A DNA stretch of 64,000 nucleotides from Bacteroidales bacterium (GTDB lineage: Bacteria > Bacteroidota > Bacteroidia > Bacteroidales > JAADJA01): contig JALSSR010000282.1 in assembly GCA_026984135.1 (NCBI GenBank), positions 1,930-65,929 on the forward strand, written 5' to 3'. The notes beneath the pieces were generated by a model. It was not told the origin of the DNA, did no database searches, and saw only the letters and a program-made list of their open reading frames with translations. This document shows positions 40,352 to 61,780 of this stretch, piece by piece. The position numbers and the translations under genes are program-made. Numbering within the stretch: position 1 is the stretch's first letter; each line of letters opens with the position of its first letter.

Positions 40352-41521
40352 ATGGGGCAATTTAAAAAGGATATGGAAGAACAGGGAGTCTGCATTATAA
40401 TCCCCGCATATAATAATGCAGGGACTTTGAGAAATGTCATTGAAGATGTTTTTCGATATTCTGAAAATATCATTGTTGTAAATGATGGTTCAACGGACGA
40501 GACCTTGCAAATATTGGGCACCATAAACAATATTGATGTGGTTTCTTACAAAAAAAACAGAGGTAAGGGATACGCTCTGAGGAAAGGTTTTGAAAGGGCA
40601 ATTGAAAAGGATTTTAAATATGCAATAACCATTGATGCCGACGGACAGCATTTTGCCGATGACATTCCGTTATTTATCAAGAAACTTAAAGAAGAAGAAG
40701 ATGCTGTTATAATCGGTGCCCGGAATATGACTCAGGATGGCGTGCCGGGAAAAAGCAGTTTCGGACACAAATTTTCAAATTTCTGGTTTTGGGTGGAGAC
40801 GGGAATAAGGCATCCCGATACACAGTCGGGCTTCAGACTTTACCCGTTGGAACGTATCAAAGATTCAAAATGGTTCACAAGAAAATATGAATTTGAAATA
40901 GAGGTCATTGTCAGACTTGCGTGGAAGGGTGTAAAAATAACTTACGTCCCCGTAAAGGTTTATTATGCACCTGCTAATGAAAGAATATCCCACTTCCGTC
41001 CCTTTGTTGACTTTTCAAGAATCAGCGTGTTAAATACTATGCTTGTTATTTGGACTTTCCTGTATATCAAACCGCGGGATTTCACAAAAAAAGCTTTCAG
41101 AAAATCCGTTAAACAGCATTTTAACGAACAGATAAACAACCCTAAATATTCCAATCTTTATTTATCACTCTCGGTAGCATTCGGTGTTTTTATGGGAATA
41201 ATTCCTATTTGGGGTTATCAACTTGTTTCCGCAATTTTTCTGGCACACGTTTTAAAACTTAATAAGGTTATTGTTGCTATTTCGGCAAATATAAGTCTGC
41301 CGCCGTTGATACCGTTCATTTTGTTTGCATCCGTAAAAACCGGCGAACTGATTCTCGGAACACACACGGGACTGAATTTCAATTCCGAAATAACATTTGA
41401 CCTTATCAAATCGCTGTTAACCGTTTACATCACCGGAAGCATTGTTTTTGCAGTTGTGATGTCATTATTTTCAGGATTGATATCGTGGGCTCTTCTTGCA
41501 ATCTTCCGAAGAAGAAATTAG
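40352..41521 (+). CDS. GT2 glycosyltransferase fused to a DUF2062-like membrane domain
   Basis: 389 aa. CIIIPAYNNAGTL, IVVNDGSTDET and TIDADGQH (DxD). The C-terminal ~130 aa form TM helices, with IPIWGYQL and ISLPPLIPF typical of DUF2062. Confidence 0.8.
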   Translation: MGQFKKDMEEQGVCIIIPAYNNAGTLRNVIEDVFRYSENIIVVNDGSTDETLQILGTINNIDVVSYKKNRGKGYALRKGFERAIEKDFKYAITIDADGQHFADDIPLFIKKLKEEEDAVIIGARNMTQDGVPGKSSFGHKFSNFWFWVETGIRHPDTQSGFRLYPLERIKDSKWFTRKYEFEIEVIVRLAWKGVKITYVPVKVYYAPANERISHFRPFVDFSRISVLNTMLVIWTFLYIKPRDFTKKAFRKSVKQHFNEQINNPKYSNLYLSLSVAFGVFMGIIPIWGYQLVSAIFLAHVLKLNKVIVAISANISLPPLIPFILFASVKTGELILGTHTGLNFNSEITFDLIKSLLTVYITGSIVFAVVMSLFSGLISWALLAIFRRRN

Positions 41522-41643
41522 TGATGCAAATAATAAAACAATAAGATCAAATTTTTCAGGGTGTTTCATAAAAAACGGACATCATTTTAAAATATTGTAA
41601 ATTAATAGTTCAAAATGTAATGAGCCTGCAGACATCTTTTAGT

Positions 41644-41651
41644 TATTTTTG
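41644..41651 (+). promoter_or_regulatory. Bacteroidota -7 promoter box (TAnnTTTG)
   Basis: TATTTTTG, 27 nt upstream of the ATG at 41679. Confidence 0.45.
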
Positions 41652-41678
41652 CGCCGAAATAGGCTTTAAAGGAAGTAT

Positions 41679-45509: not shown

Positions 45510-45555
45510 CAAATCTTATTTTCAATGAAAAATGAAAAATTTCGTTTTTTTTCAT

Positions 45556-45563
45556 TATCTTTG
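45556..45563 (+). promoter_or_regulatory. Bacteroidota -7 promoter box (TAnnTTTG)
   Basis: TATCTTTG, 26 nt upstream of the ATG at 45590. Confidence 0.45.
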
Positions 45564-45589
45564 TTGGGAAATTTCACAAACGGTTTAAT

Positions 45590-47125
45590 ATGAAAAATCT
45601 ACCCATCGGCATACAGGAATTTAAGAAACTCCGGGAAGGAGATTTTCTCTATATTGATAAAACGGAATTTATCTACAATTTGATAAATTCGGCTTCCTAC
45701 TATTTCCTGTCCCGCCCACGCCGATTCGGTAAATCGCTGTTGTTGAACACAATAAAAGAGATATTTTACGGAAATAAAGAGTTGTTTGAAGGTCTGTGGA
45801 TTTACGATAAGATAGAGTGGGAAAAGTATCCGGTGATTAAGATTTCCTTTTCAAATATGAACTACCGTTCACTCGGATTGGAGAAAGCTATTAATAACGA
45901 ATTGTTAATGATTGCCAAACAATACGATATTGCATTTGAATTTGACGATTTCAGCACAAGATTCAGGGAACTGATTCAAAAACTTTCAACGGATAAAAAG
46001 GTTGTCATCCTCATTGACGAATACGACAAACCCATAATAGACTACATTGAAGATATTCCGCAAGCCGAAGAAAACCGTAAAATTCTGAAAAGTTTTTATT
46101 CCGTCATCAAAGACAGCGACAACTACATCAAATTCTTTTTCGTAACGGGAGTATCCAAATTCAGTCAGGTCTCCATCTTTTCCGATTTGAACAATCTGAA
46201 TGATATTACACTTGATAAAAATTATGCTGCTTTAACAGGTTACACCCAAGAAGAATTAGACTCATATTTTCCCGAGTACATTGAAAAGGTAGAAGAGGAT
46301 TATGAAGGCATCTTCGATGATATCCCCGCCCAAATAAAAAAATGGTACAACGGCTATTCCTGGGACGGGAAAACTTTTGTTTATAATCCCTTTTCTATTT
46401 TGAACTTTTTCTACAAAAGAACCTTCGGTGATTACTGGTATGCCACCGGAACTCCCACTTTTCTTATGAAACTGATAAAGGAAAACAAATATACTATTTT
46501 CGACATAAAGAACAAAACCGTTCCGAGAGGTCTTTTGGATAAATATGAAATCACTTCCATTTCACTGATTCCGTTACTTTTCCAAACAGGTTATCTCACG
46601 GTAAAAAAAATTGATATGCGCAAAATGACATTGCAGCTCGACTATCCCAACCTCGAAGTGGAAAGTTCGTTCAATATGCATCTTTTGTCATATCTTCTTG
46701 GCGGCAAAACCGACAAAACAGGCAGTCTGCTTGTACAATTGTCCGAATCCATAGAACAACACCGCATAGAACAATTCATAGATAATGTTAACTCGGTTTT
46801 CAAAGGTATTTCATATACACTTATTGACAAAAAAGAAAAATATTTCCACTCGCTTTTTTATCTGATAATCAACCTTCTCGGCTTTACAATCGAAACGGAA
46901 GTGATGACCGTTGACGGCAGAATTGATGCCGTGATAACCACGGACGATTATATCTATGTCATAGAGTTCAAGGCAAATCAGGATGCAAAAACGGCATTGG
47001 AACAGATAAAAGAGAAAGGCTACCACAAAAGATACACTTCCGGCAAACGGAAAATCACTTTGCTTGGAATTAACTTCGACATTGAGAATAAAATAATTGA
47101 CGATTATATTTCCGAGGAAATATAA
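45590..47125 (+). CDS. AAA-ATPase_like / PD-(D/E)XK (PDDEXK_9-type) family protein
   Basis: 511 aa. The N-terminus LPIGIQEFKKLREGDFLYIDKTEFIYNLI..RPRRFGKSL matches the predicted-AAA-ATPase family that is multi-copy in Bacteroidota. The C-terminus GRIDAVI..IYVIEFK is a PD-(D/E)XK-like core. Confidence 0.8.
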   Translation: MKNLPIGIQEFKKLREGDFLYIDKTEFIYNLINSASYYFLSRPRRFGKSLLLNTIKEIFYGNKELFEGLWIYDKIEWEKYPVIKISFSNMNYRSLGLEKAINNELLMIAKQYDIAFEFDDFSTRFRELIQKLSTDKKVVILIDEYDKPIIDYIEDIPQAEENRKILKSFYSVIKDSDNYIKFFFVTGVSKFSQVSIFSDLNNLNDITLDKNYAALTGYTQEELDSYFPEYIEKVEEDYEGIFDDIPAQIKKWYNGYSWDGKTFVYNPFSILNFFYKRTFGDYWYATGTPTFLMKLIKENKYTIFDIKNKTVPRGLLDKYEITSISLIPLLFQTGYLTVKKIDMRKMTLQLDYPNLEVESSFNMHLLSYLLGGKTDKTGSLLVQLSESIEQHRIEQFIDNVNSVFKGISYTLIDKKEKYFHSLFYLIINLLGFTIETEVMTVDGRIDAVITTDDYIYVIEFKANQDAKTALEQIKEKGYHKRYTSGKRKITLLGINFDIENKIIDDYISEEI

Positions 47126-47165
47126 AACACAAAATAATCCTACTTTACGCTTTAAGCTATTCTAT

Positions 47166-47173
47166 TATCTTTG
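47166..47173 (+). promoter_or_regulatory. Bacteroidota -7 promoter box (TAnnTTTG)
   Basis: TATCTTTG, 32 nt upstream of the ATG at 47206. Confidence 0.45.
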
Positions 47174-47205: not shown

Positions 47206-48717
47206 ATGGTAACAGAATGGCAATACGATGTAGTAATTATCGGCAGCGGTCTCGGCGGTCTTTTGGCAGGCGCATTGCTGAGTAAAGAAGGATACAATGT
47301 CTGCATTGTCGAGAAAAATCCGGTTTTCGGAGGTAATTTGCAAACCTTCAGGCGTAATGGTGTTGTTTTCGATACGGGAATGCACTATTTCGGAAGCGCT
47401 GCAAAAGGACAGTTCATTTACAAACTTTTTAAATATCTTGGCATTTATGACTCCCTGAAACTGAAAAGACTTGATATTGACGGATTTGATATCCTTAATT
47501 TTAAAGATAGAGAGTACAAGTTTGCCCAGGGATTTGATAATTTTACCGACACTATCTCCTCATATTTTCCAACCGAAAGGGCTGCGGTAAAAAAGTTTAC
47601 CGAAACAATAAAAAAGGTTGGCTTTTCTGAAAACATGTTCAATCTCATTGCAAAAAATAATGAGGATTTTTTCAAAGTCGGTGAGCACTATTCTCAGAAT
47701 GCCTTTAAAGTAATTAGCTCTTTGACAGATGATTATGATTTGCGTAATGTTCTTGCAGGACTTAACGGACTTATCGGAGGAGGAAGGGATAAGACTAATA
47801 TGTTTGTTTTCGGGATGACCTATTATTCCTATATTGAAAGCGCCTGGAGATTTGTCGGTGGGTCTTCTCAGCTCACGGATGCCCTTGTAGGGGTTATTAA
47901 ACAATACGGTGGCACGGTTATAAACAATGCGAAGGTAACCGAAATTATTCTTAACGAGAAAAGAACAGTAGATTCATTAAGGACAGATAAAAATCTTATC
48001 GTTAAAGGAAAAAAGTTTATTTCAAACATTCATCCGGCAAATACAATTAACCTGCTACCAAAAAATTCACTTAGAAAAGTCTATGTCAACCGGATAAGAA
48101 GGTTGGAAAACAGCATCAGTATGTTTTCCGTTTATCTTGTACTTAAAGATAATATGGCAAAATATTTAAACTATAACTATTTTGATATTTTTACTGACTC
48201 TACTTGGGCTGATCATGAAGCGGGAATGGATAAATGGCCTCAGGGATATATACTTACATCCCAGGTTCCGGAGAGGGGAGGGGAATTTGTTTCGGGTATA
48301 ACCATAATGACTCCCGTTAATCCCAGGATTTTTGATAAATGGATTAATACAACAGTTGAAAAAAGAGGCGGGGAATATAAAGACTTTAAAAGTGAATTGG
48401 CGGAGAAGCTTCTGAAAAAAGTTTTTATGAGATTTCCTGAATTTCGTGCCGCCGCTAAAAAATATTATACGGCTACACCTCTGACGTTCAGGGATTATAC
48501 AGGTACACCTGACGGTTCGGCTTACGGATTAATAAAAGACAGTGAAAAACCCTTTGAAACACTTGTGCTGCCGAAGACACATATCAGAAATCTTTTTTTT
48601 ACAGGCCAGAATATCAATGTCCACGGATTGCTTGGTGTTTCTACCGGTTCGCTGTTAACCGTTTCATACATAACTGACATTAAAAGAATTATTAAGGAGA
48701 TTAATGATGCGGGATAA
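47206..48717 (+). CDS. FAD/NAD(P)-dependent oxidoreductase, phytoene-desaturase (CrtI-like) family
   Basis: 503 aa. YDVVIIGSGLGGLLAGALLSKEGYNVCIVEKN dinucleotide-binding fold and the C-terminal FFTGQN block. Confidence 0.8.
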   Translation: MVTEWQYDVVIIGSGLGGLLAGALLSKEGYNVCIVEKNPVFGGNLQTFRRNGVVFDTGMHYFGSAAKGQFIYKLFKYLGIYDSLKLKRLDIDGFDILNFKDREYKFAQGFDNFTDTISSYFPTERAAVKKFTETIKKVGFSENMFNLIAKNNEDFFKVGEHYSQNAFKVISSLTDDYDLRNVLAGLNGLIGGGRDKTNMFVFGMTYYSYIESAWRFVGGSSQLTDALVGVIKQYGGTVINNAKVTEIILNEKRTVDSLRTDKNLIVKGKKFISNIHPANTINLLPKNSLRKVYVNRIRRLENSISMFSVYLVLKDNMAKYLNYNYFDIFTDSTWADHEAGMDKWPQGYILTSQVPERGGEFVSGITIMTPVNPRIFDKWINTTVEKRGGEYKDFKSELAEKLLKKVFMRFPEFRAAAKKYYTATPLTFRDYTGTPDGSAYGLIKDSEKPFETLVLPKTHIRNLFFTGQNINVHGLLGVSTGSLLTVSYITDIKRIIKEINDAG

Positions 48718-50386
48718 AAAAGGCAACCGGTGGAGACGATTTCTGAAAATTTTGTTTGGAATAATTCTGTTTATTGTAATTTTATTCCTGATATTCAGAG
48801 AAACGGTTATAATTAACCCCCCTAAGATTGACGATAAAAACTTAACTGAATTGCAAAGACATAAAGTCAGTAATGATTATTTCAGAATAGGTGAGAATTT
48901 TCTTAAGCAAGATGATTCCGGTCTGTGGGAAATGTATGTTACCGGACACCCTTTCAAAAGGGGAGTCATTAACGGTAAATTATCCAAAGAGTTGATTCAT
49001 TATCAGGAAGAGGCTTTTATCAAAATGATAAAGGAACTGATTCCCAATGAATTTTATCTGAATTTCCTGAAATATTTTATAGCCTGGTTCGACCGTGACC
49101 TTGACGATTATGTTCCGTTGGAATATCAGAAGGAAATTTACGGAATTTCAATGAATGCAAGTCCCGATTTCGATTTCATCGGTACAGGATACCAGCGTAT
49201 GCTTAATTATCATGCCGCCCATGATATCGGTCATGCAATGCAAAATATGAATTTTGTAGCTTGTACTTCATTTGGCGTTTGGGATGAATTTTCAGCCGAC
49301 AGCTCTTTGTTAATAGGTAGAAATTTTGATTTTTATTCCGGTGATGATTTTGCAAAAAACAAAATTGTAGAGTTCGTTCGCCCTGCAAATGGGTATGAGT
49401 TCGCTTTTATTACCTGGGGCGGTTTTATCGGAGTGGTTTCCGGAATGAATATGCAAGGACTTACGGTTACTCTTAATGCTGCCAAATCGGATATTCCGGC
49501 AAAAGCAAAAACCCCCGTATCTATTGTCGGAAGAGCTATCCTGCAATATGCTAAGAATATTGACGAAGCTTTTGAAATTGCTAAAAAATATGAAACTTTT
49601 GTCTCCGAAACCTTTTTGATCGGTTCGGCAAATGACGGCTATGCGGCAATTATTGAAAAATCGTTGGATACAACCGTGCTTTTCAGGCTAAATAAGCACT
49701 ATATCATTGCCACTAACCATTTTCAGGATAAAGCTTTTGCAAAAACAAAACTGAATATTGAAAACCGTGAAAACGGAACATCGGTTTACAGGTATGAAAG
49801 GGTTGACGAGTTGATAAACGATTACGGAAAACTCAATTATTTGAAAGCCGCAGCATTGCTTAGAAACCAAAAGGGACTTCGCAACAGAGATATAGGAATG
49901 ACAAATGAAAAGGTTATCAATCAGTTGATTGCACATCATTCGGTTATCTTTAAACCGGAACAACGACTAATGTGGGTTTCGACACAACCCTTTCAACTTG
50001 GAAAATTTGTTTGTTACGACCTGAATAAGGTTTTTGCTGATAATGCAAATGCCGGAAAGGCTGACTTTACGGTTGATACATTGATGATTCCCGCCGATAA
50101 GTTCCTGTTTTCTGATAAATACAATGATTTCCTTTTTTACAAGAGTTTTGTGGAGAAGACAAAACGGGATAACTTTGACGGAATAACGGAAAGCGATTTG
50201 GAAAAGTTTATTGCTTCAAATCCTGAATTTTATTATACTTATGAAAAGGCCGGCGATTACTATCATTTTATTAAGGATGACAATAAATCGGTGGAATATT
50301 ATAATTTTGCCCTTCAAAAGGAGGTTTCTTCAAAAGCGGAAAGAGAAAAGATATTGAAAAAGATAGCGGATATAAAAAATAAATAA
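48704..50386 (+). CDS. C45-family (acyl-CoA:6-APA acyltransferase-like) Ntn-hydrolase-fold protein with C-terminal helical repeat
   Basis: 560 aa. N-terminal TM helix. FVACTSFGVW holds the candidate Ntn nucleophile Cys. 14-nt overlap with the upstream gene. Homologues of this type occur in flexirubin clusters (from memory). Confidence 0.65.
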   Translation: MMRDKKGNRWRRFLKILFGIILFIVILFLIFRETVIINPPKIDDKNLTELQRHKVSNDYFRIGENFLKQDDSGLWEMYVTGHPFKRGVINGKLSKELIHYQEEAFIKMIKELIPNEFYLNFLKYFIAWFDRDLDDYVPLEYQKEIYGISMNASPDFDFIGTGYQRMLNYHAAHDIGHAMQNMNFVACTSFGVWDEFSADSSLLIGRNFDFYSGDDFAKNKIVEFVRPANGYEFAFITWGGFIGVVSGMNMQGLTVTLNAAKSDIPAKAKTPVSIVGRAILQYAKNIDEAFEIAKKYETFVSETFLIGSANDGYAAIIEKSLDTTVLFRLNKHYIIATNHFQDKAFAKTKLNIENRENGTSVYRYERVDELINDYGKLNYLKAAALLRNQKGLRNRDIGMTNEKVINQLIAHHSVIFKPEQRLMWVSTQPFQLGKFVCYDLNKVFADNANAGKADFTVDTLMIPADKFLFSDKYNDFLFYKSFVEKTKRDNFDGITESDLEKFIASNPEFYYTYEKAGDYYHFIKDDNKSVEYYNFALQKEVSSKAEREKILKKIADIKNK

Positions 50387-51715: not shown

Positions 51716-51830
51716 AACAGGAATAAAAATAAATTAAAAGTTATATAGTGCTATGCTATATAATGCTTTGCATGCTTTTTAATCTGTAATTTAAATAATT
51801 TGAAAATATAAATTGAAAAAACAAATAACA

Positions 51831-52466: not shown

Positions 52467-52478
52467 CTCTGCTGTTTG

Positions 52479-54017
52479 ATGTACACTGTCGGAAGTAAAA
52501 ATATAACACCTGATGATTTTTATGATATTCTTTATAAGGGGATTAAAATAGAAATATCTGCGCAAGCATTGGAACGTGTTGATCTGAGTTTTAATTTTCT
52601 GAAAGAGTTTTCAAAAGAAAAGATCATTTACGGGATAAACACTGGCTTTGGGCCTATGGCTCAATATGCGATAGAGGATGCCAATCAGATTCAACTTCAA
52701 TATAATCTTATCAAAAGTCACGCTTCTGGAGTGGGAGATACTATTCCTCCTGTTGAGATAAAAGCAGCAATGATTGTTATGCTAAACAATCTGCTTCAGG
52801 GCTATTCGGGTGTGCATCAAAGTGTTGTTAATTTGCTTGCTGAGTTCATAAACAGGGATATAATACCCTTTGTTCCCGAACATGGTGGCGTTGGAGCCAG
52901 CGGTGACCTTGTTCAACTGGCACATATTGCTCTTTGTTTGATTGGCGAAGGAGAAGTTTATTATAAGGGCCGGTTATCGAACACAACGGAAGTTTTTAAC
53001 AGCACCGGGCTTAAACCCGTTGAAATACACATTCGTGAAGGTTTGGCATTAATGAACGGAACTTCGGTTATGACCGGTATTAGTATTGTCAATGCATTAA
53101 AAGCCCGTCGCTTGATCAACTGGTCGTTGATAGCCTCGGCATTCATCAATCAGATTGTTCAATCCTTTGACGATTACTATTCCGAAGAGCTTAACAGCGT
53201 TAAAAAGCATAAAGGACAGCAATATATCTCCCGGAAAATAAGATGGCTCGAAGAGGGTAGTAAACGAATTAAAAAAAGAGAAAGTGAGTTTTATAACGGA
53301 AACGGATTTCAATCAAAAATTTCCACAAGAGTTCAGGAGTACTATTCAATAAGGTGTGTTCCGCAAATCCTGGGACCGGTATATGAAGCAATTGAAAATG
53401 CAATTGCAGTGTTTATTAATGAAGCTAACTCGGTTCACGATAATCCGGTCATAAATTATAAAACCGGAAACGTTTATCACGGTGGTAATTTTCACGGCGA
53501 TTATGTCTCTTTTGAATCGGATAAACTGAAAATTGCCGTTACAAAACTCTCTATGATAACTGAAAGACAACTGAATTTCCTGATGAATGATAAACTGAAT
53601 AAAATTTTACCTCCGTTTGTCAATCTAGGAACTTTGGGATTGAATCTTGGGATGCAGGGAGTGCAGTTTACTGCAACTTCAACCACTGCTGAAAATCAAA
53701 CTCTTTCTTTTCCGATGTATCTTCATAGTATCCCGAATAATAATGATAATCAGGATATTGTGAGTATGGGAACAAATTCTGCCCTGATAACCAAAAAGGT
53801 TATTAATAATGCTTTTCAGGTTATGTCAATAGAATTGATTGCACTATTGCAAGCAATTGATTATCTTGATATTGTATCGGATTTGTCGGAGAAAACCAAA
53901 ACAGTATATAATGATTTGAGACAAATAGTTCCCAAATTTATTGAAGATTCACCAAAATATTCGGATATCGAAAACATAAATAATTTTATTCAAAATAATT
54001 GTGTAAAAGGATTTTAA
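52479..54017 (+). CDS. aromatic amino acid ammonia-lyase (HAL/PAL/TAL family; likely tyrosine ammonia-lyase of the flexirubin/APE pathway)
   Basis: MIO-forming GGVGASGDLVQLAH, YGINTGFGPMAQY, REGLALMNGTSVMTG, YSIRCVPQILGP, VYHGGNFHGDY and SIPNNNDNQDIVSMG. These blocks match my recollection of the Flavobacterium johnsoniae TAL. The gene context is polyketide-type, not hut. Confidence 0.8.
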   Translation: MYTVGSKNITPDDFYDILYKGIKIEISAQALERVDLSFNFLKEFSKEKIIYGINTGFGPMAQYAIEDANQIQLQYNLIKSHASGVGDTIPPVEIKAAMIVMLNNLLQGYSGVHQSVVNLLAEFINRDIIPFVPEHGGVGASGDLVQLAHIALCLIGEGEVYYKGRLSNTTEVFNSTGLKPVEIHIREGLALMNGTSVMTGISIVNALKARRLINWSLIASAFINQIVQSFDDYYSEELNSVKKHKGQQYISRKIRWLEEGSKRIKKRESEFYNGNGFQSKISTRVQEYYSIRCVPQILGPVYEAIENAIAVFINEANSVHDNPVINYKTGNVYHGGNFHGDYVSFESDKLKIAVTKLSMITERQLNFLMNDKLNKILPPFVNLGTLGLNLGMQGVQFTATSTTAENQTLSFPMYLHSIPNNNDNQDIVSMGTNSALITKKVINNAFQVMSIELIALLQAIDYLDIVSDLSEKTKTVYNDLRQIVPKFIEDSPKYSDIENINNFIQNNCVKGF

Positions 54018-54032: not shown

Positions 54033-54761
54033 ATGAGAAACGCATTAGTAACAGGAGGTTCGGGAGGTATTGGACAAGCAATTTGTATTAAACTTGCTTC
54101 CTCCGGTTTTCATGTTCTGGTTCATTATAACAGAAACGAAGCAGGTGCAGAAGAAACTTTAAAAACGATTGAGGAAGCCGGAGGTTCGGCTGAGATTACG
54201 GGATTTGATATCGGCAGTAAGAAAGAAATCAATGATTTTTATGAGTCGTTTAAAAAAGATCATCCCGGTGAATATATTGACGTATTGGTTAACAATGCCG
54301 GGAAAAGTGCCGATAATCTAATGATCTTTATGTCGGATGAGGAATGGGAAAGTGTGATTGACATAAACCTGAACGGATTTTTCTATTTGACCAAAGCATT
54401 GTTGAAAGACATGATTGTTAAAAAGTACGGCAGGATAATCAATGTTGTCTCCCTTTCGGGAATAAAAGGGTTGCCCGGACAAACGAACTATTCGGCTGCA
54501 AAAGCAGGTGTGATTGCCGCAACCAAAGCTTTGGCACAGGAGGTTGGGAAAAAGCACGTTACCGTTAATGCTGTGGCTCCGGGATATATTAAAACAAAAA
54601 TGACCGAAAACCTTGATGAAAGTCAATTGAAAAAATTCATCCCTCTTAACCGGTTCGGTTTACCTGATGAAGTGGCTGAAGTTGTTGAGTTTTTAGCTTC
54701 CGACAGGTCTTCCTATATCACGGGTGAAGTAATTTCAGTTAACGGAGGTATCTATACTTAG
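54033..54761 (+). CDS. fabG: 3-oxoacyl-ACP reductase (SDR, FabG-like)
   Basis: 242 aa. ALVTGGSGGIGQAI, NNAG, YSAAKAG catalytic Tyr/Lys and PGYIKT. Confidence 0.88.
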   Translation: MRNALVTGGSGGIGQAICIKLASSGFHVLVHYNRNEAGAEETLKTIEEAGGSAEITGFDIGSKKEINDFYESFKKDHPGEYIDVLVNNAGKSADNLMIFMSDEEWESVIDINLNGFFYLTKALLKDMIVKKYGRIINVVSLSGIKGLPGQTNYSAAKAGVIAATKALAQEVGKKHVTVNAVAPGYIKTKMTENLDESQLKKFIPLNRFGLPDEVAEVVEFLASDRSSYITGEVISVNGGIYT

Positions 54762-54798: not shown

Positions 54799-54806
54799 TA
54801 TATTTG
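54799..54806 (+). promoter_or_regulatory. Bacteroidota -7 promoter box (TAnnTTTG)
   Basis: TATATTTG, 17 nt upstream of the ATG at 54824. Confidence 0.45.
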
Positions 54807-54823: not shown

Positions 54824-55132
54824 ATGATTCAACAGGTTATATATGATAAACTTTCGGAAGTCAGACGATTATTAAAAGAGAATAAAGTTAAGCGTGCTTA
54901 TTTATTTGGTTCGGTTTGTAGTAATAATTTTAAAGAGCAAAGTGATGTGGATTTTTTAGTTTCTTTTAATGATAATTTGGACCCGATTGAATATGGCGAA
55001 AATTATTTTAAATTATTGTACGCTCTTCAAAATTTACTGAAAAGAGATGTAGATATTGTTGCTGAAGAAACACTTTCAAACCCATACTTAATTAATTCAA
55101 TTAATAAAACGAAAGTGTTATTGTATGAGTGA
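54824..55132 (+). CDS. MNT-type nucleotidyltransferase antitoxin
   Basis: 102 aa. GSVCSNNFKEQSDVDFLV fits the GSx10DxD minimal nucleotidyltransferase motif. Its stop overlaps the ATG of the following HepT-like reading frame (ATGAGTGA). Confidence 0.8.
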   Translation: MIQQVIYDKLSEVRRLLKENKVKRAYLFGSVCSNNFKEQSDVDFLVSFNDNLDPIEYGENYFKLLYALQNLLKRDVDIVAEETLSNPYLINSINKTKVLLYE

Positions 55133-55464
55133 TGAAGAAAAAAAATATTTGACTGACATTTTTACAGCAATTGAATCTATTGATTTCCATATTGGTAAAA
55201 AAAAGATATTTAATGAATATATTAATAATAAAACAATTAGAAGGGGCAGTAGAGAGGGAACTTGAAATAATTGGTGAAGCCACAGGAAGATTGCTAAAGC
55301 TAAATCCGGATATTAATATTTCTTATGCAAGAGTGATCGTTGATTTAAGAAATAAAGTTATTCATGCTTATGATGAAGTGAATCATATGGTGCTATGGAA
55401 AATTATTATAAAAGATTTGCCGGTATTAAAATCCGAGGTTTCAAAATTACTTATTGACCACTAA
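55125..55464 (+). pseudogene. HepT (DUF86) RNase toxin gene, disrupted by a +1 frameshift
   Basis: Frame A runs 55125-55265 (MSDEEKKYLTDIFTAIESIDFHIGKKKIFNEYINNKTIRRGSREGT*). Frame B (the track ORF from 55171) carries ..QLEGAVERELEIIGEATGRLLK..DLRNKVIHAYDEV (Rx4HxY). Removing one A from the A4 run at 55230-55233 would join them into a 112-aa DUF86 protein. Confidence 0.7.
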
Positions 55465-55475: not shown

Positions 55476-56693
55476 ATGAACAGGGTTGTAATAACAGGAA
55501 TAGGAATTTATTCAACGATTGGATTGAATCTGGACGAGGTCAGAGATTCTCTATACAATGGAAAGTCGGGAATTGGTATTGATGAGTACAGAAAAGAGTT
55601 GGGTTTTATATCACCGCTGACGGGAGTCATTGAGAGACCGAAACTGAAAGGTGTTATTCCGAGAAGGATGCGTGTGGGTATGGCTGAGCAGGGCGAATAT
55701 GCTTATATGTCAACGGTGGAAGCATTGAAAAATGCAAATATTGATGAAGAGTATATTGAAAAAACCAAAGCCGGTATCATCTTCGGGAACGACAGTTCCG
55801 CTGTGCCAGTGGTTGAAGCTGCCGATACAATACGAGAAAAAAAAGATACTACGCTTGTGGGCTCCGGTTCGGTTTTCCAGTCAATGAACTCAACGGTTAC
55901 CATGAACCTTGCGGTTATTTTTAAACTTAAAGGAATAAATTTTACGGTAAGTGCTGCCTGCGCAAGCGGCTCACATTCGATAGGACTTGGATATCACTTG
56001 ATTAAGAGTGGTTTACAAAACATGATCATTTGCGGTGGAGCTCAGGAGATAAATGCAATGTCAATGGGAAGCTTTGACGGACTGATGGCTTTCTCAAAAA
56101 GAGTTGATGCCCCGCAAAAAGCCTCCCGACCCTTTGATGCTAACCGTGACGGACTTGTTCCGAGCGGCGGTGCTGCAACGGTTATTCTGGAAAGCTATGA
56201 ATCGGCTGTTAAAAGAGGTGCACCCATACTCGGAGAGATTATCGGATACGGATTCTCATCCAACGGCGACCACATAACTGTTCCCAATGTTGAAGGCCCC
56301 GCAACCTCTCTCGAAATGAGTATAAAGCAAGCGGGTATTACTGCCAAAGAGATTGATTATATCAATGCGCATGCCACTTCAACTCCAGTTGGTGATAAAA
56401 TGGAAGCTCAGGCTATTTATAAGGTTTTCGGAGATTTGAAAACACCTGTAAGCTCTACAAAAGCAATGACAGGTCACGAAATGTGGATGGGCGGTGCCAG
56501 CGAAATAGTCTATTCGTTGATTATGATGCACAACTCCTTTATTGCTCCCAACATTAATTTTGAAACACCGGATGAATTTTCCTCCAAACTTAATATTATT
56601 GATAAAACAGTAAATAAAAACATTAATATGTTTTTGTCAAACTCTTTCGGCTTTGGTGGTACCAACTCTTCGCTTGTGGTAAAAAGGATTTAA
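55476..56693 (+). CDS. beta-ketoacyl-ACP synthase (FabB/FabF-type KS)
   Basis: 405 aa. Active-site SAACASGSHSIG (Cys), NAHATSTPVGD (His), TGHEMWMGGA (His). Confidence 0.9.
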   Translation: MNRVVITGIGIYSTIGLNLDEVRDSLYNGKSGIGIDEYRKELGFISPLTGVIERPKLKGVIPRRMRVGMAEQGEYAYMSTVEALKNANIDEEYIEKTKAGIIFGNDSSAVPVVEAADTIREKKDTTLVGSGSVFQSMNSTVTMNLAVIFKLKGINFTVSAACASGSHSIGLGYHLIKSGLQNMIICGGAQEINAMSMGSFDGLMAFSKRVDAPQKASRPFDANRDGLVPSGGAATVILESYESAVKRGAPILGEIIGYGFSSNGDHITVPNVEGPATSLEMSIKQAGITAKEIDYINAHATSTPVGDKMEAQAIYKVFGDLKTPVSSTKAMTGHEMWMGGASEIVYSLIMMHNSFIAPNINFETPDEFSSKLNIIDKTVNKNINMFLSNSFGFGGTNSSLVVKRI

Positions 56694-56749: not shown

Positions 56750-56757
56750 TACTTTTG
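56750..56757 (+). promoter_or_regulatory. Bacteroidota -7 promoter box (TAnnTTTG)
   Basis: TACTTTTG, 64 nt upstream of the ACP ATG at 56822. Confidence 0.4.
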
Positions 56758-56821: not shown

Positions 56822-57070
56822 ATGAAAGAACAGGATATTATAAAAATAGTTAACGATTTTTTAATTGACGAATTTGAGCTTGAGCCGGAGCAGATTAAAG
56901 ATGATACATTACTCAGGGATGAACTGGAATTGGAAAGTCTTGACCTCGTTGATATTATTGTTCTCATAGAAAGGGAGTTCGGATTTAAGGTTGAACCTAC
57001 TGAAATAGTTAAAGTTAATACCGTCAGGGAACTCTACGACTTTATAACGGAAAGAGTTAATAAATCATAA
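56822..57070 (+). CDS. acyl carrier protein
   Basis: 82 aa, acidic. LELESLDLVDII contains the phosphopantetheine-attachment Ser in a DSL-like context. Confidence 0.85.
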   Translation: MKEQDIIKIVNDFLIDEFELEPEQIKDDTLLRDELELESLDLVDIIVLIEREFGFKVEPTEIVKVNTVRELYDFITERVNKS

Positions 57071-57071: not shown

Positions 57072-57971
57072 ATGCCGCAATGGACAGGTAAAACCAGAGG
57101 TGGAATTGCCGGTTATAAATCGTTTGTTTTCATACTGAAATATTTCGGTATCTCCTCCGCATATTTTTTCCTTCGGTTTGTTGTTTTATACTTTTTGATT
57201 TTTGCACCGAAGGCTTTCAAAGCATCCTATTATTTTCTTAATAAACGACTTCATTTTTCGCCTTTTAAATCTTTTCGGTATGTAAGCAAAACATTCTATA
57301 AACTTGGGCAGGTACTTATTGATAAGGTTGCTTTTCTTTCGGGATTAAATAAAAACTATACTTTTGATTTTGACGGTGAAGAGCATCTGCGACAATTGGC
57401 TGATGAAACCGGAGGTGTATTGATAGGAGTTCATGCAGGTAGCTGGGAAATAGCAGGTCATCTGCTGAAACGTCTCAATACAAAGATCAATATCGTAATG
57501 TTTGCCGATGAGCACGAAAGAATAGAAGGTTTTCTAACGCAAATGTATAAAGATAAAAATGTTAATTTTATTCTTATCGGAAAGAATGATTATTCTCACC
57601 TGTTTCAAATTGCCGAAGCATTGAAGAATAGGGAGATGATTGCAATTCATGGCGACAGGTTTTTGCCGGGTACCAATACTCTATCCAAAGAATTTTTTGG
57701 AAAAAATGCTTTGTTTCCTGCCGGGCCGTTCCTTATCCCTTTGAAATATAATGTTCCGGTGAGTTTTGTTATGGCTATGAAAGAAACATCGAAGCACTAT
57801 CATTTTTATGCCACACCTCCAAAAAAATTCCAATCTCCCAAAAATCCGGACGACAGAAACCGGCTTGTTAATATTATGTTGGAAGAGTATATTGAAAATC
57901 TGGAAAATATTTTAATGAAATATCCCGACCAATGGTTTAATTTTTACGACTTTTGGGGTGATATTAAATGA
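57072..57971 (+). CDS. LpxL/HtrB-family (lipid A biosynthesis-type) acyltransferase
   Basis: 299 aa. N-terminal TM helix. GVHAGSWEIAG corresponds to the HxGNWE catalytic block. It starts 1 nt after the ACP stop. Confidence 0.75.
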   Translation: MPQWTGKTRGGIAGYKSFVFILKYFGISSAYFFLRFVVLYFLIFAPKAFKASYYFLNKRLHFSPFKSFRYVSKTFYKLGQVLIDKVAFLSGLNKNYTFDFDGEEHLRQLADETGGVLIGVHAGSWEIAGHLLKRLNTKINIVMFADEHERIEGFLTQMYKDKNVNFILIGKNDYSHLFQIAEALKNREMIAIHGDRFLPGTNTLSKEFFGKNALFPAGPFLIPLKYNVPVSFVMAMKETSKHYHFYATPPKKFQSPKNPDDRNRLVNIMLEEYIENLENILMKYPDQWFNFYDFWGDIK

Positions 57972-57989: not shown

Positions 57990-59066
57990 ATGTCGAACTC
58001 CTATGGAAATGATAAAAAGCGTGCTGTTGATGCAAAAACCGATGCCCAAAAAATAGCTTTTGCCCCTTTGATGTTTCAGGCTGCCAAAGCTTTGAGAGAC
58101 TTCGGTATCCTGAAATTGCTCTTACGGGAAAAGAAGGGTCTAACATCCGAACAAATTGCCTCAAATGTGAATATTTCCAGATACGGTGCAACGGTTTTGC
58201 TTGAAGCGGGTCTCAGTTTGGAACTTGTATATTTGAAAGAGGGTAAATTTAAACTGACAAAAACAGGTTTCTTTTTGGAACGGGATGCTATGACAAAAGC
58301 CAATATGAATTTTGCCAACGATATTAATTATAAGGGCGCATTTTATCTTCAGGAGTCTATCAGGGAGGGAAAACCGGTTGGTTTGCACAATGTTTTCGGA
58401 AATTGGAATACCGTGTATGAAGCACTATCCGAACTACCTGATGATGCACGGAAAAGCTGGTTTGAGTTTGACCATTTTTATTCCGATTTTGCTTTCGACG
58501 AGATACTGAAAATAATCTTTAAATCGAAGCCGGAAAAAATTGTTGACCTTGGCGGAAATACGGGAAAATTTGCTATTGCCTGTGCCTCATATTCTCCAAA
58601 GGCTTCAATTACAATTATGGATTTACCCGGACAACTTGAAAATGCAAAAGAGAATGTTTCCGAATATGGGTTTAAGGATAGAATTAATTTTTATCCCATA
58701 AACTTTTTAGATGATGACAAACCTTTCCCGAAGGGTTTCGATGTGTTTTGGATGAGTCAGTTTCTGGATTGTTTCTCTGAAAATGAAATAGTTAGTATTT
58801 TGCGACGAGCAAAAAATGCAATGAAAGATACTTCTGAATTATTCATTCTCGAGACTTTTTGGGATGAACAAAAATTTGAAGCAACAACATACAGTTTGCA
58901 CGCAACATCATTGTATTTCACTTGTATGGCAAACGGTAACAGCAGGATGTACCATTCCGGCGATATGAAAAAACTTGTCGAAAATGCCGGATTATTCATT
59001 GATGCGGAGTTTAAAGATATAGGATTGGGGCATACTTTGTTACGATGTAAAAAACAGCTTAAATGA
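57990..59066 (+). CDS. class I SAM-dependent (O-)methyltransferase with N-terminal dimerisation/wHTH-like domain
   Basis: 358 aa. IVDLGGNTGKFA (motif I), TIMDLP and DVFWMSQFLDCF blocks, typical of small-molecule O-methyltransferases. Confidence 0.75.
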   Translation: MSNSYGNDKKRAVDAKTDAQKIAFAPLMFQAAKALRDFGILKLLLREKKGLTSEQIASNVNISRYGATVLLEAGLSLELVYLKEGKFKLTKTGFFLERDAMTKANMNFANDINYKGAFYLQESIREGKPVGLHNVFGNWNTVYEALSELPDDARKSWFEFDHFYSDFAFDEILKIIFKSKPEKIVDLGGNTGKFAIACASYSPKASITIMDLPGQLENAKENVSEYGFKDRINFYPINFLDDDKPFPKGFDVFWMSQFLDCFSENEIVSILRRAKNAMKDTSELFILETFWDEQKFEATTYSLHATSLYFTCMANGNSRMYHSGDMKKLVENAGLFIDAEFKDIGLGHTLLRCKKQLK

Positions 59067-59473
59067 CTGCACTTAATATACAAGAATTGATTCCGCAACG
59101 TCCCCCGTTTGTAATGGTGGAAAAACTTGTTAATGCCGGTGAGAAAACGGCGGAATCGTCATTCACGGTAACGGAAGAAAATGTTTTGACCGAAGCGGGA
59201 GTATTTACCGAAGCGGGTATCATTGAGAATATTGCTCAAACCTGTGCCCTTCAGGCCGGTTTCGTTGCATTAAACAGAGGCGTGGAAATTCCGCAGGGAA
59301 TGATTGGTGGTATTAAAAATCTGGAAATAGATTTGTTACCTGAAATTAACGATACCATAACTACATCTGTTTCAGTAGAACACGAAGTTATGAACGCCAA
59401 AATAGTAAAAGGAACCGTTTTTCTGAACGGAGAAAAAATTGCTGCTTGTGAAATGAAAGTCTTTTTGTTTTAA
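59063..59473 (+). CDS. hotdog-fold 3-hydroxyacyl-ACP dehydratase (FabZ/ApeI-like)
   Basis: 136 aa. LIPQRPPFVMVEKL N-terminus, like FabA/FabZ LPHRxPFLLVD. 4-nt overlap with the methyltransferase gene. Confidence 0.7.
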   Translation: MTALNIQELIPQRPPFVMVEKLVNAGEKTAESSFTVTEENVLTEAGVFTEAGIIENIAQTCALQAGFVALNRGVEIPQGMIGGIKNLEIDLLPEINDTITTSVSVEHEVMNAKIVKGTVFLNGEKIAACEMKVFLF

Positions 59474-59492: not shown

Positions 59493-59945
59493 ATGAAAAG
59501 GAAAAGATTAGCCGGTTTTGAAAGTAAGACCGATTTAATAAACCGAACAAATATAAAAGTTCGTTTTAGTGAAGTGGACTCTTTACGGATTGTGTGGCAC
59601 GGAAATTATATAAAGTATTTTGAGGACGGACGCGAAGCCTTCGGAAAGCAATACGGACTCGGTTATCTTGATTTTTATGAGCAAAAGTTGGTTACGCCCG
59701 TTGTGGATATTGCCGTTCATTATAAAAGTCAATTGGTTTATGGTGATGAAATAGTTGTTGAAACGGAGTTCGTTAACAGTGAAGCTGCAAAAATAATATT
59801 TGAGTACAGAATAATCAGAAAAAGTGATATGTCAGTTATTGCAACCGGAAGAAGCGTTCAGGTGTTTTTAAGCACTGACGGTGAATTAATCCTGACAAAT
59901 CCGGATTTTTTTGTTGATTGGAAAAAAAAGCAGGGTTTGGTTTAA
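59493..59945 (+). CDS. acyl-CoA/ACP thioesterase, 4HBT (YbgC-like) hotdog family
   Basis: 150 aa. VRFSEVDSLRIVWHGNYIKYFEDGREAF matches the YbgC/4HBT N-terminal catalytic block. Confidence 0.8.
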   Translation: MKRKRLAGFESKTDLINRTNIKVRFSEVDSLRIVWHGNYIKYFEDGREAFGKQYGLGYLDFYEQKLVTPVVDIAVHYKSQLVYGDEIVVETEFVNSEAAKIIFEYRIIRKSDMSVIATGRSVQVFLSTDGELILTNPDFFVDWKKKQGLV

Positions 59946-59965: not shown

Positions 59966-59973
59966 TATATTTG
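59966..59973 (+). promoter_or_regulatory. Bacteroidota -7 promoter box (TAnnTTTG)
   Basis: TATATTTG, 49 nt upstream of the ATG at 60023. Confidence 0.4.
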
Positions 59974-60022: not shown

Positions 60023-60595
60023 ATGAAAACTTTAAAGCTTATTATCGCCGTAGCACTTCTTTATGCTGTTTCGGCTTCAGCAGTATTTGCTAAAGGATTT
60101 CAACCCCCGTCAGAAGGAAAAGCAGTCATCTATTTTGTGCGTGTCACTGGCTGGGGAGGTGCAATCTCCTTTGAGTATTTTCACGGTGATAAGTATATTG
60201 GCGTGTTCAAAGGGAAAAATTATATGAGGTATGAATGTGATCCGGGAGAACAATTGCTTTGGGCATCTTCGGAAAATAAAGAGTTTTTAACTGCCGACCT
60301 TAAAGCAGGCGGAACATATGTTGTTATTGTTGACGTAATAATGGGGGGCTGGAAAGCACATGTGGGTTTAAAACCTATAACTGCCGATGATACCGAATTG
60401 TTTGAAAGAGCTAAAAAATTAATTGAAAAAAAAGACCCGGTTGTCACACCACAGGCTAAGATTGACAAAATGAATAAAAAACTTGCCGAGTTTATTCCAA
60501 AGATGCTGAACCGGTATGAGAATGAATGGAAGAATGAACATAACTTCAGGCATATCTCCCCGGATATGGCAATTCCCGAAGATAAACTGAAATAG
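60023..60595 (+). CDS. secreted DUF2846-like protein
   Basis: 190 aa with a signal peptide. The AVIYFVR..FHGDKYIGVFKGKNYMRYECDPGEQLLWA pattern resembles DUF2846. Confidence 0.55.
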   Translation: MKTLKLIIAVALLYAVSASAVFAKGFQPPSEGKAVIYFVRVTGWGGAISFEYFHGDKYIGVFKGKNYMRYECDPGEQLLWASSENKEFLTADLKAGGTYVVIVDVIMGGWKAHVGLKPITADDTELFERAKKLIEKKDPVVTPQAKIDKMNKKLAEFIPKMLNRYENEWKNEHNFRHISPDMAIPEDKLK

Positions 60596-60607
60596 TTTTT
60601 TTTATAC

Positions 60608-60615
60608 TACTTTTG
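60608..60615 (+). promoter_or_regulatory. Bacteroidota -7 promoter box (TAnnTTTG)
   Basis: TACTTTTG, 28 nt upstream of the ATG at 60644. Confidence 0.45.
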
Positions 60616-60643
60616 CCGTCTGATAATTTGAGTTATTGGTTTT

Positions 60644-61780
60644 ATGGCAAATAGTTACATTGCAGGCGATAATGTTATATCCTCTCTCGGTTTTTCAACT
60701 GCTGAAAACTTTGGAAGTTTGCTTAAGGGTGTTTCCGGCATTAAAACCGGTAAATATGATGACCTCTACCCCGAAGAGTTTCCAGCTTCCCTGATTGACA
60801 GGGAAAGACTTGCTTCGGAATCTGAAAAACTGAAAATAAACAGCAATTTTACTCCTTTTGAACAACTACTGATAATCTCAATTAGCAAGGCTTTGAAGAG
60901 TACTGCTATTGATGTTAAATCTCCCGGAACCCTGTTGATAATATCAACAACAAAGGGAAATATTGATTTACTTAAAAACAATCCGCAGGATTTTGACAAA
61001 GAGAGAGTTAAACTTTGGAAATCGTCTCGGGAAATCGGGAAATTTTTCGGAGTGGCTAACGAACCACTTGTAATTTCAAATGCTTGTATATCAGGAGTTT
61101 TGGCTTTGAATATTGCCGACAGATTTATTAAATGGGGCAAATATAACAATGTGATTGTTGCCGGTGCGGATCTCTTGTCGGAATTTGTTGTTTCGGGGTT
61201 TCAATCCTTTTTATCACTTAGCAAAGATATCTGCAAACCCTTTGACAGCGACAGGACGGGTCTCTCCCTTGGTGACGGAGCCGCTACCGTTGTTCTGACA
61301 GAAAGTAAGGAGGAGGCTAAAAAGCCGCTGATAAAGATAGTCTCAGGCTCGGGAAGCAATGATGCAAACCATATTTCCGGACCGTCAAGAACGGGAGAAG
61401 GTCTGTATATTGTTATAAACGATATTTTAAAAGGGAAAAAAGATATTGATTTTATTTCCGCACATGGAACGGCAACACCTTACAACGACGATATGGAGTC
61501 AATGGCTATTGACCGAAACGGTTTGAATAGTGTTCCTGTTAACAGCTTCAAAGGATATATCGGACATACACTCGGCGCGGCAGGTGTTATGGAGTCGGTA
61601 TTTTGTTTTGAGTCAATGCGACAAAATGTAATAATCGGCACTTACGGATTTCAGAATCCCGGAACCGTAAAAAAAATCAATGTTGTGAAAGAGACAAAAC
61701 CTGCAGAATTAAACAGAGTTTTAAAAACGGCTTCGGGATTCGGGGGTAGCAATGCGGCTGTTTTATTTGAAAAAACGTAG
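60644..61780 (+). CDS. beta-ketoacyl synthase (second KS of the cluster, FabB/F-type triad)
   Basis: 378 aa. ISNACISGVLAL (Cys), SAHGTATPYND (His), GYIGHTLGAAG (His). This is not a FabH/DarB-type Cys-His-Asn enzyme. Confidence 0.85.
   Translation: MANSYIAGDNVISSLGFSTAENFGSLLKGVSGIKTGKYDDLYPEEFPASLIDRERLASESEKLKINSNFTPFEQLLIISISKALKSTAIDVKSPGTLLIISTTKGNIDLLKNNPQDFDKERVKLWKSSREIGKFFGVANEPLVISNACISGVLALNIADRFIKWGKYNNVIVAGADLLSEFVVSGFQSFLSLSKDICKPFDSDRTGLSLGDGAATVVLTESKEEAKKPLIKIVSGSGSNDANHISGPSRTGEGLYIVINDILKGKKDIDFISAHGTATPYNDDMESMAIDRNGLNSVPVNSFKGYIGHTLGAAGVMESVFCFESMRQNVIIGTYGFQNPGTVKKINVVKETKPAELNRVLKTASGFGGSNAAVLFEKT

Follow-up and report, generated by a model that had tools for sequence, protein, structure and literature searches.

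The question raised by this locus is whether a set of polyene biosynthetic genes that lacks darA and darB, the genes for the dialkylresorcinol (DAR) partner of flexirubins, encodes a complete pathway to a DAR-free product or one portion of a known pathway. The locus lies at positions 40352-61780 of a 64-kb stretch of DNA, hereafter referred to as the window, and is encoded entirely on the + strand. The window originates from an uncultured member of the Bacteroidales and occurs in hydrothermal-vent metagenomes. An initial annotation had described the locus as a flexirubin-type aryl-polyene cluster and had suggested that its polyene is probably attached to a (lyso)lipid or, alternatively, that the DAR genes lie elsewhere. 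Our analysis revealed that it is a flexirubin-type flx locus, but that it holds part of the pathway only. We propose with moderate confidence that it covers initiation, the early steps of elongation, tailoring and export in a flexirubin-type pathway, and that the remaining flxL-S block most likely resides at a second locus.

Gene content was established from the listing of open reading frames (ORFs) and from profile scans against Pfam and NCBIfam (Table 1). All 15 gene types named in the initial annotation were found, and profile matches confirmed its housekeeping borders, rsmI-like and polA. Its gene list was nevertheless incomplete, as it did not include an AAA/PDDEXK gene, a MntA/HepT pair and a secreted protein of 217 aa. 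The order of the genes is T, U, (AAA/PDDEXK insert), V, W, Y, 217 aa, A, B, (MntA/HepT), C, D, E, J, F, H, 190 aa, I, where C and I encode the first and second ketosynthase (KS1 and KS2).

The assignment to the flexirubin type was borne out on two counts. FlxA, FlxY and FlxB pass the cut-offs of flexirubin-specific NCBIfam equivalogs, and the FlxJ model is narrowly missed. In addition, the domain architectures and the local gene order map one-to-one onto the published flx and Fjoh gene tables (supplement of Schöner et al. 2014, PMC3992019; FlxU and others also in PMC12968099). In Chitinophaga pinensis, flxA encodes a tyrosine ammonia-lyase (TAL), flxB a short-chain dehydrogenase/reductase (SDR), flxC a ketosynthase (KS), flxD an acyl carrier protein (ACP), flxE a lipid A-type acyltransferase, flxF a dehydratase (DH)-like protein, flxG a hypothetical protein, flxH a thioesterase (TE), flxI a KS, flxJ a methyltransferase and flxK a halogenase. 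These are followed by flxL (a small "condensing enzyme"), flxM (ACP), flxN (KS), flxO (condensing enzyme/chain-length factor, CLF), flxP (deacetylase), flxQ (LolA), flxR (hypothetical), flxS (DH-like), flxT (family 2 glycosyltransferase, GT2), flxU (exporter with acyl- and methyltransferase), flxV (retinol-reductase-like), flxW (C45), flxX (phosphopantetheinyl transferase, PPTase) and flxY (CoA ligase), and Fjoh_1075-1079 of Flavobacterium johnsoniae correspond to Y, W, V, U and T (PMC3992019). The FlxT-U-V-W block of the window has the same architectures and order as Fjoh_1079-1076 and flxT-W, although every NCBIfam match of FlxV falls under its cut-off. The assignment of FlxC, D, E, F, H and I is supported by Pfam, by PF22817, by the catalytic triads of the KSs and by synteny in related loci. 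The ApeP-, ApeK-, ApeD-like and MMPL matches are common to aryl polyene (APE) and flexirubin clusters and do not discriminate between them.

With regard to the starter, FlxA carries the ASG motif of the 4-methylideneimidazole-5-one (MIO) cofactor at residue 141 and the TAL/PAL-type glutamine in DNQDIVSM (residues about 424-428). At the published selectivity-switch position it reads KSHASGVG (residues about 80-86), with the S-H of histidine ammonia-lyases. According to the C. pinensis paper, the substrate specificity of ammonia-lyases cannot be read from sequence alone (PMC3992019).

An assignment of these genes to ordinary fatty-acid synthesis together with lipid A and phospholipid metabolism was considered and rejected on the strength of the FlxA, FlxY and FlxB equivalog matches. 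The KSs, ACP, ketoreductase (KR), DH, TE, LpxL-like and PlsC-like proteins do have folds of the fatty-acid and lipid synthesis type. However, fatty-acid synthesis has no place for an ammonia-lyase, a C45 or a CrtI-like gene, the KS matches are far under the FabB/FabF cut-offs, and synteny with the published flx clusters is kept. We give this assignment almost no credence.

Related loci (labelled L003-L034) were read up to 10 kb on either side of the query gene. A search of genome contigs with FlxA returned relatives only, all with at most 85% identity over FlxA: 75-85% in metagenome-assembled genomes (MAGs) of uncultured Bacteroidales, 71-85% in Chlorobiota-labelled ones, about 60% in Draconibacterium-type MAGs and 56% in Myroides. 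The FlxA-B-KS1-ACP-acyltransferase core is kept in the related loci long enough to show it, and it is usually followed by FlxJ and the TE and in about half of the cases by the DH. FlxC shows 62-93% identity to its counterparts in those related loci that include the gene, and the FlxU orthologues of L005 and L006, both of 1275 aa, show 58-66% identity.

The comparison with these relatives did not bear out the view of the cluster as complete and self-contained. In relatives, KS2 is directly followed by flxL, a second ACP, a KS:CLF pair, a deacetylase, LolA and a second DH, all of which are absent here; polA adjoins KS2 after 148 bp. The window occurs in four public vent metagenome runs (X1-X4), and assembly error does not account for the KS2|polA junction, because this junction is contiguous in the contigs of three of them, X1-X3, which are independent public assemblies from two studies. 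No remnant of flxL was found between KS2 and polA. By tblastn, homologues of FlxL-M-N-O were found neither in the window nor in L001, a contig that runs past the window end and supplies 10 kb downstream; they are present in L005, L006, L009, L022, L023, L032, L033 and L034. The window ORFs scanned contain no polysaccharide deacetylase, LolA or second-dehydratase Pfam domain (FlxP/Q/S), and neither the 217-aa nor the 190-aa secreted protein matches LolA. In the alignment, both KS1 and KS2 show the Cys-His-His triad, and the window contains no CLF.

KS2 stands directly before flxL in L005, L021, L022, L023 and L032. L005 has the order of the window without its two insertions, and continues after KS2 with a flxL of 226 aa and the start of the second ACP. 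In L022 and L032, KS2 is followed by L-M-N-O-P-P-MT2, which is complete in L032, whereas L009 shows KS2 fused to a flxL-like domain, then an ACP2-like stretch (tblastn), KS, CLF and deacetylase. L034 reads L-M-N-O-P-LolA-216aa-ApeI-like DH. Two relatives have the pathway interrupted. In L023, whose biosynthetic genes are 71-89% identical to those of the window, a 7.5-kb block of unrelated genes separates flxL from M-N-O-P. In MAG AC3.32 (GCA_041393255.1) the pathway is split between contigs, with flxA to flxL on JAWKKM010000042 (L021) and flxM-N-O-P-MT2 midway along JAWKKM010000008 (L033), a contig of 197 kb.

The absence of this block also bears on the suggestion that the polyene is joined to a (lyso)lipid by two acyltransferases as in APEs. 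Under that suggestion, the locus would be a self-contained, DAR-less and APE-like cluster, and its polyene would be esterified by the LpxL-like and PlsC-like acyltransferases. Such a product would agree with the lack of DarA/DarB in 74 kb and with the presence of two intact KSs, an ACP, a KR, a DH and a TE, and acyltransferase-anchored APE lipids are known (bioRxiv 10.1101/2020.12.19.423268). However, FlxE, FlxU, FlxT, FlxV and FlxW, that is, both acyltransferases, the exporter fusion, the GT2, the CrtI-like and the C45 proteins, are normal components of the DAR-containing clusters of C. pinensis and F. johnsoniae (PMC3992019, PMC12968099). As these proteins are normal in clusters that make DAR esters, they are no pointer to APE-like anchoring or to a DAR-less product, and the lipid attachment was not borne out. 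A starter made by TAL and FlxY and the presence of FlxV and FlxW are features of flexirubin clusters, not of the E. coli or Vibrio APE clusters. The APE starter is 4-hydroxybenzoate (4-HBA), and the KS:CLF pair, which the window lacks although it is contiguous in relatives, is the engine of chain elongation in APE systems, where most core-gene deletions abolish pigment (PMC8253772). Lipid anchoring by a self-contained cluster seems distinctly unlikely to us.

A second locus is suggested by the vent metagenomes themselves. When the reads of X1-X4 were compared with the flxM-N-O region of L006 at 80% likeness, a KS-CLF-collinear contig was recovered with depths of 10.5 / 15.7 / 5.7-9.6 / 3.9-4.7 in X1-X4, against 9.9 / 15.2 / 8-12 / 2.4-5.6 for the window. 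Other flx-like contigs in the same runs have depths of 41-179x. The KS-CLF contig measures 5082 bp in X1 and 4715 bp in X2, which is long enough to span the expected ACP2 site. This co-variation in depth is suggestive, though no more than that, of a second locus within the same population. A search for the second locus of this organism by CLF/FlxL homology yielded, among the contigs read, those of other samples only.

Several points weigh against a pathway completed from a second locus. The co-abundant KS-CLF contig matched none of the 30 CLF clusters of the lineage that were inspected with 30-nt probes, and it may come from another population of similar abundance. KS1 and KS2 alone may also make a shorter polyene. 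To our knowledge, a product has not been described from this lineage, and no RNA runs containing the cluster region were found.

The same junction could be read as the scar of a lost pathway. In that case, a rearrangement at KS2|polA would have removed flxL-S and any DAR genes, no pigment would be made, and selfish genes would be colonising the relic. The break lies exactly after KS2 when compared with L005, L021, L022, L023 and L032, two insertions of unrelated genes are present, and the flxL-S block was not recovered for this organism, all of which would fit such a loss. Nevertheless, all 15 biosynthetic ORFs are intact and of full length when compared with their orthologues. Between the window and the X2 strain, the 40 differences with the strongest support comprise 30 synonymous changes, 9 non-synonymous changes, mostly conservative, and 1 intergenic change; since 30 of the 39 coding changes are synonymous, the genes are under purifying selection. 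Moreover, the arrangement persists in the three runs that span the junction, a co-abundant KS-CLF contig exists, and one of the insertions, MntA/HepT, is of old date and is also present in L023, whose pathway is complete. We regard decay of the pathway as very improbable.

Two further strain differences were observed. At 59048, 18 nt ahead of the point where the FlxJ stop and the dehydratase start overlap, the X2-X4 strains have one additional A, which alters the C-terminus of FlxJ between strains, and the X2 strain carries an extra ATTAAT after the thioesterase stop (59945).

With regard to the DAR genes, the reported absence of DarA/DarB between the housekeeping borders was upheld by tblastn and ORF scans. 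The reference DarA/DarB pairs were taken from two related loci, Myroides L017 and MAG locus L014, and a source name, "dialkylresorcinol condensing enzyme DarA", confirmed the family. With these pairs, tblastn gave no match within the window or the 10 kb that follow it, and the 40 kb upstream contained neither a FabH-like nor a DarA-like ORF. Neither the window nor L001 contains a DAR module (darA, B, G, H, I, J). The DAR reference modules read were L014, L017, L026 and L027, and these are also the only loci matched by the tblastn queries; DarB orthologues are 51-65% identical between lineages. No darAB were found in the stretches read of L005, L006, L021, L022, L023, L031, L032 and L033.

DAR modules located far from flx genes are, however, known. 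In C. pinensis, flx corresponds to Cpin_1853-1877 and darAB to Cpin_6850/6851, within a separate locus Cpin_6843-6852 (PMC3992019). L026 is a stand-alone DAR module between housekeeping genes, with FabH, DarG, a BtrH-like protein, two ABC genes, DarA, DarB and an ApeP-like DH, and DarA homologues are common in Bacteroidales MAGs. We put the chance that darAB lie elsewhere in this genome at about even. Because the elongation block is missing as well, the absence of darAB from the locus says little about new chemistry.

A comparison of the DarAB DNA of L014 and L017 with the vent runs revealed DarAB-like contigs with depths of 8.1/0/44/0 and 4.6/6-8/5.9/16, which belong to at least two populations other than that of the window. 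No DarAB contig with the depth profile of the window was detected in X1-X4, a comparison of low sensitivity at about 50-65% protein identity. A 14.4x contig of X2 matched only a short stretch of DarB around SDGA(A/G)A and was set aside as ambiguous; this segment is presumably common to FabH-like ketoacyl-ACP synthase III (KAS III) enzymes.

These data also bear on the existence of a flexirubin variant without DAR, in which the polyene would be made from two loci and the partner would be a lipid or the product of a neighbouring operon instead of a dialkylresorcinol. Beyond the lack of darAB in the stretches read and the unlike depths of the vent DarAB-like contigs, such a variant could draw on an operon that stands beside flxM-P/MT2 in three relatives (L022 15844-20660, L032 13756-21059, L033 12-8344) and of which the window contains nothing. 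The full set is seen in L032 and comprises a KS, a 3-hydroxyacyl-CoA dehydrogenase (3HCDH), a KAS III, two or three crotonases (ECH), a 4HBT thioesterase, a B12 radical S-adenosylmethionine (SAM) protein, an ACP and a malonyl-CoA:ACP transacylase (MCAT); the stretches of L022 and L033 each cover part of the operon. In principle, this KASIII/3HCDH operon could supply both a beta-ketoacyl and an enoyl substrate to a condensing enzyme analogous to DarB. DarG- and BtrH-like (DarH) genes are also present in L021 (10931-11947) and L031 (6452-10740), and in L031 they precede an ACP, a sulfotransferase and a radical SAM gene, with no ABC transporter or DarA/DarB at that place. On the other hand, the KAS III of the operon is just 21-25% identical to DarB, the operon lies outside the window and its linkage could be a coincidence. 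The distant DAR modules of C. pinensis and L026, the frequency of DarA homologues in Bacteroidales MAGs and the insensitivity of the read-based DarAB comparison also speak against a DAR-free variant, which we consider rather unlikely. Should darAB prove to be missing from the entire genome, the product of the lineage would be an aryl-polyene conjugate of a new class.

Under the favoured reading, a flexirubin-type pathway divided between two loci, the biosynthesis can be outlined as follows. Homology to characterised enzymes shows that FlxA converts tyrosine into 4-coumarate by deamination, and that FlxY converts 4-coumarate into 4-coumaroyl-CoA. The ACP FlxD would then receive the starter, which KS1/FlxC and KS2/FlxI would extend, with ketoreduction by FlxB and dehydration by the ApeP-like FlxF during extension. 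The FlxJ-like enzyme probably methylates the ring. Release or transfer of the acyl chain may be carried out by FlxH (thioesterase), FlxE (LpxL-like acyltransferase) and FlxW (C45), and FlxT and FlxU may help to move the product to the outer membrane. The genes flxL-M-N-O-P(-Q-R-S), predicted to lie at a second locus of the same genome, would provide the partner of KS2, the second ACP, the KS:CLF pair, the deacetylase, LolA and the second dehydratase.

The two insertions differ in their distribution among the relatives. The AAA-ATPase_like/PDDEXK_9 gene lies between the flxU exporter fusion and flxV, where about 1.7 kb are inserted (45510-47205). It is absent from L005 and L006, in which flxU and flxV overlap. 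An exact 11-nt direct repeat, ATTATCTTTGT, which contains a TAnnTTTG box, has one copy at 45554, shortly before the inserted gene, and another at 47164, shortly before flxV. The repeat may represent a target or promoter duplication, or chance, as further 11-nt repeats occur in the same 2 kb. The MntA/HepT pair (54824-55464) lies between the KR gene flxB and the KS1 gene flxC. A pair with 68-73% protein identity occupies the identical site in L023 (116-752), whereas L005, L006 and L022 have none. This pair is an old, vertically inherited toxin-antitoxin insertion within the biosynthetic operon. The HepT frameshift in the window is due to one extra G (GGGG instead of GGG, about 55241-55244). The ENA and Logan contigs encode an intact HepT of 112 aa, and the additional base is missing from X1-X3, X4 being uncovered there; the extra G probably reflects an error of assembly or consensus, or else a rare variant, in the source of the window. 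Both the AAA/PD-(D/E)XK gene and MntA/HepT would be selfish elements whose insertion divided the cluster into additional transcription units.

A division of the cluster into several transcription units had been suggested from five TAnnTTTG boxes (41644, 47166, 56750, 59966, 60608), all of which exist. Across the whole window, the motif is not enriched (95 found, 87 +/- 9 expected). In the + strand intergenic gaps of the cluster, however, 7 boxes occur in 823 bp where 0.7-1.1 are expected, with a Poisson P of about 1e-5 against the window-wide expectation of 0.7. Every gap box lies 25-72 bp upstream of a start codon, and two serve inserted genes. Because the gap boxes are enriched and each is near a start codon, several transcription units are plausible, as judged from these motifs.

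Table 1. Borders, genes and TAnnTTTG boxes of the flx locus, in window coordinates.
Feature	Coordinates	Strand	Evidence or remark
RsmI-like TP_methylase gene (left border)	39663-40346		Pfam
FlxT: GT2 glycosyltransferase fused to DUF2062	40352..41521	+	Pfam Glycos_transf_2 1.7e-24, DUF2062 3e-17; = flxT/Fjoh_1079
TAnnTTTG box	41644..41651	+	35 bp upstream of flxU
FlxU: MMPL/RND exporter + PlsC acyltransferase + SAM methyltransferase fusion, 1276 aa	41679..45509	+	Pfam MMPL, Acyltransferase, Methyltransf_31; = Fjoh_1078
TAnnTTTG box	45556..45563	+	34 bp upstream of inserted AAA/PDDEXK gene
AAA-ATPase_like + PD-(D/E)XK (PDDEXK_9), 511 aa, inserted, non-biosynthetic	45590..47125	+	Pfam 8.9e-61, 6.8e-21
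TAnnTTTG box	47166..47173	+	40 bp upstream of flxV
FlxV: CrtI-like (retinol-reductase-like) oxidoreductase	47206..48717	+	Pfam NAD_binding_8, Amino_oxidase; position = flxV/Fjoh_1077
FlxW: C45 Ntn-hydrolase / acyl-CoA:6-aminopenicillanic acid (6-APA) acyltransferase-like proenzyme	48704..50386	+	NCBIfam C45_proenzyme 220 bits > 85; = flxW/Fjoh_1076
FlxY: 4-coumarate-CoA ligase (PaaK-like)	50408..51715	+	NCBIfam NF053551 FlxY_rubin equivalog 682 bits > 520
Secreted 217-aa protein, conserved	51813..52466	+	Same-position copies in relatives
FlxA: MIO tyrosine ammonia-lyase	52476..54017	+	NCBIfam NF053541 FlxA_rubin_TAL equivalog 817 bits > 700
FlxB: SDR ketoreductase	54033..54761	+	NCBIfam NF053542 FlxB_rubin_SDR equivalog 372 bits > 340
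TAnnTTTG box	54799..54806	+	25 bp upstream of mntA
MntA nucleotidyltransferase antitoxin, inserted, non-biosynthetic	54824..55132	+	Pfam Polbeta, NTP_transf_2; NCBIfam MntA 50 bits, under cut-off 60
HepT RNase toxin, inserted, frameshifted in window	55125..55464	+	Pfam HepT-like
KS1 = FlxC: FabB/F-like ketosynthase, Cys-His-His triad	55476..56693	+	Pfam ketoacyl-synt and _C; alignment
TAnnTTTG box	56750..56757	+	72 bp upstream of ACP gene
ACP = FlxD	56822..57070	+	Pfam PP-binding 2.3e-11
FlxE: LpxL-like (lipid A biosynthesis-type) acyltransferase	57072..57971	+	Pfam Lip_A_acyltrans 3.3e-17; = flxE/Fjoh_1104
FlxJ-like O-methyltransferase	57990..59066	+	NCBIfam NF053543 FlxJ_fam_MTase 514 bits vs cut-off 560; next family 47 bits
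FlxF: ApeP-like hotdog dehydratase	59063..59473	+	PF22817 ApeP-like on identical product; weak FabZ similarity
FlxH: 4HBT thioesterase	59493..59945	+	Pfam 4HBT_2 5.7e-16; TIGR00051 69.9 bits > 68.7
TAnnTTTG box	59966..59973	+	57 bp upstream of 190-aa gene
Secreted 190-aa protein	60023..60595	+	Weak Pfam DUF2846 E = 0.004, under cut-off; orthologues in L005, L007
TAnnTTTG box	60608..60615	+	36 bp upstream of KS2
KS2 = FlxI: ketosynthase, Cys-His-His triad; final cluster gene before polA	60644..61780	+	Pfam, NCBIfam, alignment
polA (right border)	from 61929	minus	NCBIfam PRK05755, 858 bits

The secreted 217-aa protein gave no match in Pfam, NCBIfam or a PDB profile search. It has an N-terminal hydrophobic segment, read by eye as a signal peptide, and its single-sequence AlphaFold model has a predicted local distance difference test score (pLDDT) of 46. 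Copies with 51-88% identity are found at the same position in L003, L004 (two), L005 and L022, the two paralogues of L004 standing in tandem (2746-4055). In L007, two paralogues of the 190-aa protein flank KS2 (7873-8433, 9732-10301).

Further away, the genes downstream of polA (L001 14157-21137) encode a Por_Secre_tail protein, glycyl-tRNA synthetase (GlyRS), YitT, PorP/SprF, GldK and GldL. It follows from these genes that the organism possesses a type IX secretion/gliding apparatus. The region upstream of the cluster contains an MBOAT and AlgX-like SGNH pair of the polysaccharide O-acylation type (22460-25500) and a trio of CotH kinase-like (1004 aa), DUF4956 and VTC-domain genes (29239-33689). 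A protein of 1339 aa with a C-terminal FlgD_ig domain is encoded at 18288-22307.

These findings extend flexirubin-type clusters to an uncultured Bacteroidales lineage of hydrothermal vents, and are of little import beyond annotation. As such clusters are often split, the lack of darAB in an antiSMASH region is no ground for assuming DAR-less chemistry.

Among the known systems, the APE clusters of E. coli CFT073, Xenorhabdus doucetiae and Vibrio fischeri share with the window the logic of type II fatty-acid synthesis, an ApeP-like dehydratase, a 4HBT thioesterase, an LpxL-like acyltransferase, a GT2, an MMPL exporter and a methyltransferase. Their product is localised in the outer membrane and its polyene is an antioxidant, features that the product of the window would share. 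In contrast, APE clusters take 4-hydroxybenzoate as starter via ApeH and have no TAL, whereas the window has FlxA TAL and FlxY. They also possess the KS:CLF pair ApeO:ApeC and the tandem ACPs ApeE/ApeF, while the window has one ACP and no CLF, and they lack the C45 and CrtI-like genes represented here by FlxW and FlxV.

The cluster of F. johnsoniae UW101 (Fjoh_1075-1110) is closer, as the order of Fjoh_1079-1075 is that of 40352-51715, and it has the TAL-side KS, the ACP and the lipid A-type acyltransferase. It is, however, one 37-kb cluster with two darA/darB pairs, a BtrH-like protein, an ABC transporter, LolA, a deacetylase and KS/CLF, none of which is found in the window. In C. pinensis (flxA-flxY, Cpin_1853-1877), the likeness extends to the system for which the equivalogs passed by FlxA, FlxY and FlxB were built, to FlxC, D, E, F, H, I, J, T, U, V and W by domain architecture, to the local orders A-B-C-D-E and T-U-V-W-Y, to the triple fusion of FlxU and to darAB that are not adjacent to the polyene genes. 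Compared with C. pinensis, the window lacks the halogenase flxK, flxL, M, N, O, P, Q, R and S and the PPTase flxX, its T-Y block precedes flxA instead of following flxS, it has two selfish insertions, its FlxJ is slightly under the cut-off, and its host lies outside the Chitinophagales. The split loci of AC3.32 and L023 keep flxL beside KS2, whereas the break in the window falls directly after KS2 and is followed by polA. Nevertheless, they share with the window the same gene order, 65-89% protein identity and a break at the same junction after KS2/flxL.

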